A program made the position numbers and the translations under genes. The notes under the pieces are model-generated. The model did no database searches and was not told where the DNA came from. It saw nothing but the letters and a program-made list of their open reading frames with translations. Of a DNA stretch of 64,000 bases, positions 19,834-20,003 are shown in pieces. The stretch is from Burkholderiales bacterium (GTDB taxonomy: Bacteria > Pseudomonadota > Gammaproteobacteria > Burkholderiales > SG8-39): positions 7,902 through 71,901 of the forward strand of contig JAOAEA010000011.1 in assembly GCA_026417035.1 (NCBI GenBank), in the 5' to 3' direction. The number at the start of each line of letters is the position of its first letter. Position 1 is the first letter of the stretch.

Positions 19834-20003
19834 CGCGCGCTAGGCCGCCGGTGCGGCCTCCGCCTCCCGGCTCGCGCGCTTGCGCTCGTGCCTGGACGAA
19901 CAAGGGGGCAAGCGCCCCCTTGTTGATCCCCCAAGCCAGTGGCGGCGCGCGCTACGCCGCCGGTGCGGCCTCCGCCTCCCGGCTCGCGCGCTTGCGCTCG
20001 TGC
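19834..20003. repeat. Direct duplication (58 bp, 1 mismatch, period 112 bp) of the typA 3' end, flanking a 54-bp hairpin spacer
   Basis: 19834..19891 equals 19946..20003 except G/C at 19843/19955. Both copies include the stop codon (CTA on the + strand). The spacer 19892..19945 contains CAAGGGGGC-AAGC-GCCCCCTTG. Confidence 0.9.

Follow-up and report, generated by a model that had tools for sequence, protein, structure and literature searches.

Hairpin-forming repeats behind bacterial genes are usually classed as REPs, MITEs or terminators, and we know of no member of these three classes that duplicates tens of target bases. REPs carry GTAG-type motifs, usually stand as inverted doublets and reach tens to hundreds of copies. 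MITEs are bounded by paired terminal inverted repeats, and the target duplication they make is short (2-10 bp) and constant in length. In Cas1-type integration, as in CRISPR adaptation and casposons, two nicks a few tens of bases apart produce a repeat of ruler-fixed length around unrelated inserts. The integration of LINE/SINE elements and of T-DNA is eukaryotic and relies on a known reverse transcriptase, or on a relaxase plus polymerase theta. To our knowledge, IS1549 and IS1634 are the only bacterial transposable elements reported with long variable direct repeats. The repeats of these two insertion sequences range from 8 to 514 bp, and the mechanism that produces them is unexplained (PMC2266710).

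We analysed a 64-kb window, by which we mean the whole stretch of DNA from a Burkholderiales bacterium, in which the end of the typA (bipA) gene is found twice. The typA coding sequence (19952..21784, minus strand; 610 aa) was identified by its open reading frame and by Pfam matches to GTP_EFTU, BipA_C and EFG_C. A direct-repeat search placed the functional target copy, consisting of the last 16 typA codons, the TAG stop codon (19952-19954) and 10 nt, at 19942..20003 on the minus strand, and the relic copy, with 2 mismatches, at 19830..19891 on the same strand. The repeat is 62 nt long and 97% identical, and its copies are 112 nt apart from start to start. The original prediction had described a duplicated gene end of 58 nt with a single mismatch; that duplication is real and constitutes the inner part of the 62-nt repeat, and the synonymous GCG versus GCC difference in the last alanine codon was borne out by the repeat alignment. 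With the 62-nt boundaries, the two copies enclose a spacer of 50 nt (19892..19941, minus strand), whose sequence and layout in the gene direction are CACTGGCT-TGGGGGATCAACAAGGGGGCGCTTGCCCCCTTGTTC-GTCCAG. Repeat search and folding located the element core at 19898..19933 (minus strand), where TGGGGGA is followed by an 11-bp G5/C5 hairpin and TTGTTC. The inverted arms of the spacer lie at 19894-19909 and 19914-19929, and its predicted fold of -46.9 kcal/mol (z = -3.5) beats those of 199 out of 200 shuffled sequences.

On the far side of the relic from the element is a convergent gene (17956..19809, plus strand; open reading frame of 617 aa with no Pfam match), whose stop at 19809 is 20 nt from the relic; this gene bounds an ancestral typA intergenic spacer of about 30 nt. 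The C-terminus of its product (VPEPSTFALLAVAVLVLLHPRARLAIRP; VPEPSTFALLAVAVLVLL..R.R), judged by eye, looks like a PEP-CTERM sorting signal. With A for the target copy and S for the spacer, the typA layout is A-S-A, and the sequence beyond the relic is unlike the spacer. Contigs from the independent public hot-spring runs X1, X2 and X3 cross the relic, the spacer and the functional copy, and the structure is therefore not an assembly artefact of the window. We consider that the relic is probably one half of a target-site duplication, produced by the insertion of a hairpin element 10 nt past the stop codon of typA.

A second gene in the window, unrelated to typA, carries the same succession of gene end, hairpin spacer and gene end, as had been claimed from the sequence. 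This is ccmG (dsbE; 48584..49120, plus strand; 178 aa; Pfam Redoxin and AhpC-TSA), whose 3' end is the duplicated target. Tandem Repeats Finder reported an array at 49085..49310 on the plus strand with a period of 95, 2.4 copies and 93% matches, and its layout is A-S-A-S-A, with target copies at 49085-49120(24), 49180-49215(19) and 49275-49310 and spacers at 49121-49179 and 49216-49274. The duplicated target measures about 40 nt (ATCCTG...GTGATGCG). A hairpin search located the core of the first element copy (TGGGGGAGCTGCGAGGGGGTGTGCCCCCTCGCTCG) at 49138..49172 on the plus strand. The core of the second copy (49233..49267, plus strand), defined from the sequence and from strain contigs, has a decaying stem (CCCTCT) and resembles the lone copy in strain X2. 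The following gene, ccmH (49307..49807, plus strand; Pfam CcmH, E = 6e-49), starts in overlap with the stop of the third target copy (GTGA), and this overlap is the ancestral ccmG/ccmH junction. In the ccmH start region (49307-49315) the window reads GTGAGACGC and strains X2 and X4 read GTGATGCGC; the ATG that overlaps the ccmG stop is AGA in the window strain, so that an upstream GTG is the likely start there.

The kinship of the two spacers, which had also been proposed, holds: both fit TGGGGGA-N7-GGGGG-N4-6-CCCCC. Just three G5-loop-C5 hairpins with an extended stem exist in the 64-kb window, and a related search pattern is expected by chance 0.01 times per window. The third of these hairpins (CAAGGGGGACACATCCCCCTTTGG, 51045-51110) falls between the ccmI stop (51045) and that of phaC (51171), a convergent gene; GTCTGAAC stands before this hairpin, which lacks TGGGGGA, and the flanks GTCTGA and TCAGAC lengthen its stem. 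No flanking direct repeat was seen at this hairpin. The typA and ccmG copies are on opposite strands, each behind its own gene. With copies on both strands and a GC skew that is uniform and weak, the window gives no support to a replication-linked strand preference, although two copies are weak evidence.

The ccmG site exists in several allelic states among related strains. In the window and in X1 there are two units, and a 1080-nt contig from X2 carries one, its order being gene end, spacer, gene end and then ccmH. In a contig from X4, position 49124 is followed directly by 49315, with 190 nt skipped, and there is neither spacer nor duplication; the ccmG stop in this empty allele directly overlaps the ccmH start (GTGATGCG...). 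This indicates that the hairpin and the duplication arrived together, and that the spacer cannot be native at ccmG. The unit was amplified after this arrival. The finding also bears on an outcome that was to refute the idea of insertion, namely empty sites at which the duplication predates the hairpin: no such site was found, and ccmG in X4 lacks both. At typA, an X4 contig that is 98% identical over the 3' end of the gene has no spacer and no relic past the stop. As the X4 sequence downstream of typA differs, the site is not cleanly empty and counts for less than that at ccmG, the one locus where a true empty allele was found in matching context. Both cores also occur with other flanks in these communities, the 36-nt typA core in X2 and X4 and the 34-nt ccmG core in X1, X2 and X3. 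In the closest available relatives, 80 TypA-region loci (1.27 Mb) from MAGs of Casimicrobiaceae and other Burkholderiales with 71-86% identity over the TypA C-terminus, the motif had no match, and these loci therefore gave no orthologous empty site. A query of public assemblies for the identical TypA protein had no hit. An empty allele was further sought for the metagenome locus L167 in four wastewater and sludge runs, where the site was filled in all; a 160-nt skip at this locus was disregarded as an empty allele, its support being 21 nt only.

These alleles allow an alternative to be weighed, in which a gene end and its native terminator hairpin were duplicated locally in tandem, by slippage or unequal crossing-over, with no mobile element. 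The ccmG array is head-to-tail with a period of 95 and its copy number varies between strains, which shows unequal exchange at work there, and in the unrelated MAG L020 the typA stop and the 4 codons before it belong to a 91-nt stretch that is simply duplicated in tandem. That duplication (L020:10259-10433, from a groundwater betaproteobacterium) spans 84 nt at period 91 with 98% identity, takes in 69 nt of downstream sequence with a hairpin of its own, and contains no G5/C5 element. In a Casimicrobiaceae MAG, two tandem 45-nt copies of a different hairpin repeat lie behind typA (L003:3514-3605; TTCACCGCGTCGTTTGCGGTGAAAATGGTGTCTGACCCCATTTCG). A simple tandem repeat consists of whole head-to-tail units with a native spacer, whereas typA is A-S-A, not A-S-A-S, and the X4 ccmG allele has no spacer. 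The core is found at unrelated genes and in at least 120 metagenome loci, and the inverted patches described below are unexplained by slippage. Local tandem duplication is thus largely refuted by the X4 empty allele and, as an account of the typA relic, seems quite improbable; the A-S-A layout, the empty allele and the recurrence of the core at unrelated genes exclude slippage as the origin. What slippage or unequal exchange accounts for is the copy-number change that came later.

Insertion of a mobile hairpin, our preferred reading, is consistent with the distribution of the core. A scan of public metagenome contigs with TGGGGGA-N6-AGGGGG-N3-7-CCCCCT yielded at least 120 loci, in many environmental and mostly GC-rich genomes. 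The element is a non-coding hairpin of about 45 nt, in which a 5' motif (CTGAYT in most relatives, CACTGGCT at typA) is followed by TGGGGGA, 3 nt, a 9-11-bp stem ending in G5(C), a loop of 3-5 nt, the C5 arm and TTGTTC. The matches listed are not random: most often they have in common CTGAYT ahead of the motif and, past the hairpin, TTGTTC or TTTTTC, and the outer stem shows compensatory changes between subfamilies. Spacers from further loci that share nothing beyond GC-rich hairpins had been named as a refuting outcome; instead, the core (CTGAYT)TGGGGGA-N3-stem-loop-stem is common to them. This organism appears to have a low copy number, as the 64 kb contain two loci and the source runs show the cores in a few further contexts. 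Rfam 15 at gathering score, applied to the window and 12 loci, returned tRNA only, and at E <= 5 nothing came near threshold for the element. A search of the open-access literature, by sequence words and by descriptions, retrieved no account of this element or of such behaviour in small bacterial repeats.

The scan also brought up larger arrangements. Two element cores lie in direct tandem, about 9 nt apart, at L087:4026-4110 and L162:655-750; the second stem is weakened to G4/C4, and no duplicated target is present between the cores. The G5/C5 core is the right-hand module of a conserved MITE-like composite of about 150 nt with ends (C/T)TA(A/G)CAGGCTGTTGAAAAACGCTTCCC ... TTTTCAACACCCTG(C/T)TA(A/G), which has a long internal hairpin and a variable loop, and in which about 18 nt preceding the core recur directly after it (L082, L096, L101, L103, L105, L109, L113, L125, L128, L130, L133, L136, L137, L141, L145, L146, L177, L186, L189, L190 and L197). 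Its ends look like the YTAR ends made by the IS5 family. A second MITE-like composite, with ends CTAAGGAAGCGCTGATCAAG ... TGTTCAGTGAATCCCTAAG, carries the element core on its right and repeats its left end internally in inverted orientation (L104, L106, L107, L114, L121, L124, L135, L151, L153, L156, L170, L174, L182, L185, L187 and L200). A third family is made of two successive G5/C5 hairpins, TGGGGGAGT.CAGAGGGGGC..GCCCCCTCTG.CGGGGGTCTGGGGGTGTCCCCCAGA and then, about 25 nt on, GGGCGGGCGGGTGGGAAGAA, with several copies per contig (L084, L085, L092, L094, L100, L138, L140, L176, L180, L195 and others); Rfam returned no match for it.

Flanking repeats were assessed in 115 copies with enough flank (113 of them metagenomic, among the matches listed) as the best ungapped direct match within 120 nt on each side. 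When left and right flanks were taken from different loci, 300 such pairings gave a maximum score of 11. By contrast with these controls, 11 of the 113 metagenome copies among the matches listed have long flanking repeats of 22-82 nt with scores of 18-77, and two further metagenome loci show shorter or diverged, weaker ones. Together with both window loci, this makes 15 repeat-flanked loci, with duplications of 10, 21, 22, 28, 36, 37, about 40, 44, 46, 54, 58, 62, 79, 80 and 82 nt. Across the family the flanking repeats span 10-83 nt, an eightfold variation in length, and the right copy starts 11-16 nt past CCCCCT in every case. The duplicated segment is the end of a Grx4-type glutaredoxin gene at L119, the rplF stop/rplR start junction at L184 and the last codons of an acyl-CoA dehydrogenase gene at L148; these genes are unrelated, and several further loci involve others. 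About 12% of family members among the matches listed show flanking repeats; the others may have inserted long ago, or may belong to larger MITE-like composites with a different route of movement. The suggestion in the original prediction of a miniature element with very long target duplications is thus supported by the 11 metagenome loci and the two weaker ones, by the empty ccmG allele and by the occurrence of the cores elsewhere.

The junctions contain further structure. Seven of the 15 repeat-flanked loci have, beside the 5' side of the hairpin, 10-17 nt that repeat the beginning of the duplicated segment in inverted orientation; target sequence then forms the outer stem of a longer hairpin, with the element at its tip. 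This was scored by comparing the 24 nt left of the motif with the start of the right repeat, with a cut-off of at least 10 nt; none of 2000 control pairings reached it, and among the 94 copies without flanking repeats one did. At typA and ccmG the signal of an inverted patch is weak, scoring 7. At L119 the inverted segment is found in both repeat copies, which a simple fold-back model does not predict. A few bases of filler lie on both sides of the element. We also considered whether the 6-16 nt separating the element from the right repeat derive from a diverged copy of what lies upstream of the left repeat; an anchored comparison gave 22% identity, equal to the controls, and this was rejected.

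The element is also placed and oriented in a characteristic manner. At 12 of the 15 repeat-flanked loci, a same-strand open reading frame with GC3 support stops 2-35 nt before TGGGGGA, indicating that the element is usually co-oriented with the upstream gene, and in eight loci the left junction falls about 0-11 nt past the stop codon. The bias suggests either a connection with transcription or selection on the hairpin for a role in RNA. At L183 and L118 the element is opposite to the flanking genes.

Co-orientation and the position just past stop codons speak for an RNA intermediate, in which reverse transcription of a small hairpin RNA, or of a transcript's 3' end, would be primed by the target at a nick or would involve template switching to the target mRNA. 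The variable duplication length, as with LINE/SINE elements, and the junction filler and inverted segments, which recall twin priming, agree with such a route. However, the window has no reverse transcriptase, the element has a conserved 5' end and not one truncated to varying degrees, and the two elements that oppose their flanking genes do not fit; we regard an RNA intermediate as unlikely. Another route would be a DDE transposase making far-apart strand cuts, as inferred for IS1549 and IS1634, the element being a tiny MITE of an IS similar to IS1634 or IS1549. The hairpin arms could act as 10-bp terminal inverted repeats, but the element is asymmetric, its conserved 5' CTGAYT-TGGGGGA having no inverted 3' partner, and the window contains no such IS or transposase. 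Filler, inverted patches and gene-orientation bias would not be expected from symmetric cut-and-paste either, and this explanation appears rather unlikely.

Direct repeats that hold a gene 3' end with its stop codon are also the classical att signature, and could be the remnant of a site-specific integrating element that carried a gene 3' end and was almost wholly deleted. A gene for an Xer-like tyrosine recombinase is present 4.7 kb away (24669-25583), yet it has the size and domains of housekeeping XerC/XerD. An integrating element carries one attachment sequence only, while here a single 45-nt core lies between repeats of typA, ccmG, glutaredoxin, rplF/rplR and acyl-CoA dehydrogenase, the repeat lengths vary from 10 to 83 nt, and a full-length island has so far been absent from X1-X4. 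The presence of one core between repeats of many different genes excludes this origin, which we judge highly improbable.

No candidate for a mobilising enzyme was found among the 43 genes of the window, which are all ordinary chromosomal genes and include no transposase, HUH enzyme, RAYT or reverse transcriptase, nor any cas gene. The window is core chromosome, with rpsU-yqeY-dnaG-rpoD, ccmEFGHI, ccmABC, tsaD, plsY, folB, an AcrB-type pump, TamB and the Xer-like recombinase. The ccm genes are split, with ccmEFGHI on the plus strand (46128-51045) and ccmC, ccmB and a ccmA-like gene on the minus strand (53249-55488), and a gene for a PhaC-type synthase (51171-52907) lies between the two groups.

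With this family in view, the element can be compared to the systems described at the outset. It is reminiscent of REPs and REPINs (RAYT, HUH Y1), being a short, extragenic, imperfect palindrome with a conserved motif at the 5' foot of a 9-11-bp stem, compensatory stem changes and at least 120 dispersed, non-coding loci behind genes; for both, the enzyme would presumably be encoded elsewhere in one copy. In contrast to REPs, its motif is TGGGGGA, its hairpins are single, its copy number appears low and its flanking duplications measure 10-83 nt. No inverted doublets of the element were seen, the only pairs being the two direct tandems at L087 and L162. REPs are set apart by having no target-site duplication, and the repeats at 15 loci place the element outside that definition; the phrase "target site duplication" was absent from the REPIN/RAYT papers listed in the open-access search. 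MITEs such as Correia, ERIC, RPE and Nezha are likewise small and non-autonomous, and some reside at gene ends or within operons and form RNA hairpins. Two MITE-like composites with YTAR ends include the element core as a module, and the arms of the element could be read as 10-bp inverted repeats, with a 5' extension that has no partner; a duplication of 10-83 nt is, however, neither short nor fixed. An intrinsic terminator consists of a GC-rich hairpin and a T run. The window hairpins have no T run and end in TTGTTCG, some relatives (type A) having T5, and a terminator scan called no terminator-like site at either window hairpin.

The long variable direct repeats are shared with IS1634 and IS1549, and nothing else that could be tested is common to them: those are insertion sequences of 1.5-2 kb with a DDE transposase and terminal inverted repeats, whereas the element is a 45-nt asymmetric sequence with no gene, and its junctions carry inverted patches and filler. 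Cas1-type integration has a similar repeat-insert-repeat layout but differs in that the inserts here are homologous and the duplication length is variable. Variable duplications, filler, templated inverted segments and synthesis-coupled insertion recall LINE/SINE elements and T-DNA, a likeness of junction anatomy only. Replitrons are eukaryotic and have variable but short duplications.

The junction anatomy points to insertion coupled to DNA synthesis with strand switches, as suggested by the conserved 5' side of the element, the filler on both sides and the inverted copy, which takes in precisely the first bases of the duplicated segment. The original prediction had put forward, as a second mechanism, recombination with the gene end as template. 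This need not be kept as an idea apart; a modified version of it stands, because the junctions show that local DNA, inverted patches included, was copied at insertion. In general terms, insertion of the element would duplicate a long stretch of target of no fixed length. The duplication would restore the stop codon or the stop/start overlap, so that insertions at gene ends and inside operons are tolerated, and later unequal exchange between the target copies would expand the unit, giving the two units at ccmG.

As to how the insertion itself may proceed, we prefer a fold-back mechanism, at a likelihood well short of even and on the strength of the junction anatomy. The element would travel as a single-stranded hairpin and become attached to a 3' end left by a break or still being synthesised, perhaps in the non-template strand where it lies exposed immediately past a terminating gene. 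The joined hairpin would then fold back and prime synthesis along its own strand, generating the inverted patch, the element, the filler and the direct copy, after which the fold-back structure would be opened and sealed to the other end. Such an event would yield the direct duplication, the inverted patch and the filler together. It might be executed by an enzyme not yet linked to mobile DNA, or by host repair functions alone. Whether this amounts to an undescribed mode of bacterial DNA transposition, in which a single-stranded hairpin on a free 3' end serves as fold-back primer for such an enzyme or for host repair alone, is doubtful enough that we offer it tentatively.

Our findings describe a small, non-autonomous hairpin repeat, and there is a real chance that its insertion chemistry is new. 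The variable duplication, the inverted patch and the filler provide a testable handle on insertion chemistry, a question open since the repeats of IS1549 and IS1634. The relic gene ends that the element leaves are an annotation trap, as they resemble pseudogene fragments or short spurious ORFs. The element can land on a stop codon, or on the stop/start overlap of an operon, and neither gene is broken. Such tolerated landing would explain how hairpins come to be scattered through densely packed genomes, bringing with them possible RNA 3' ends, stabilisers or terminators.
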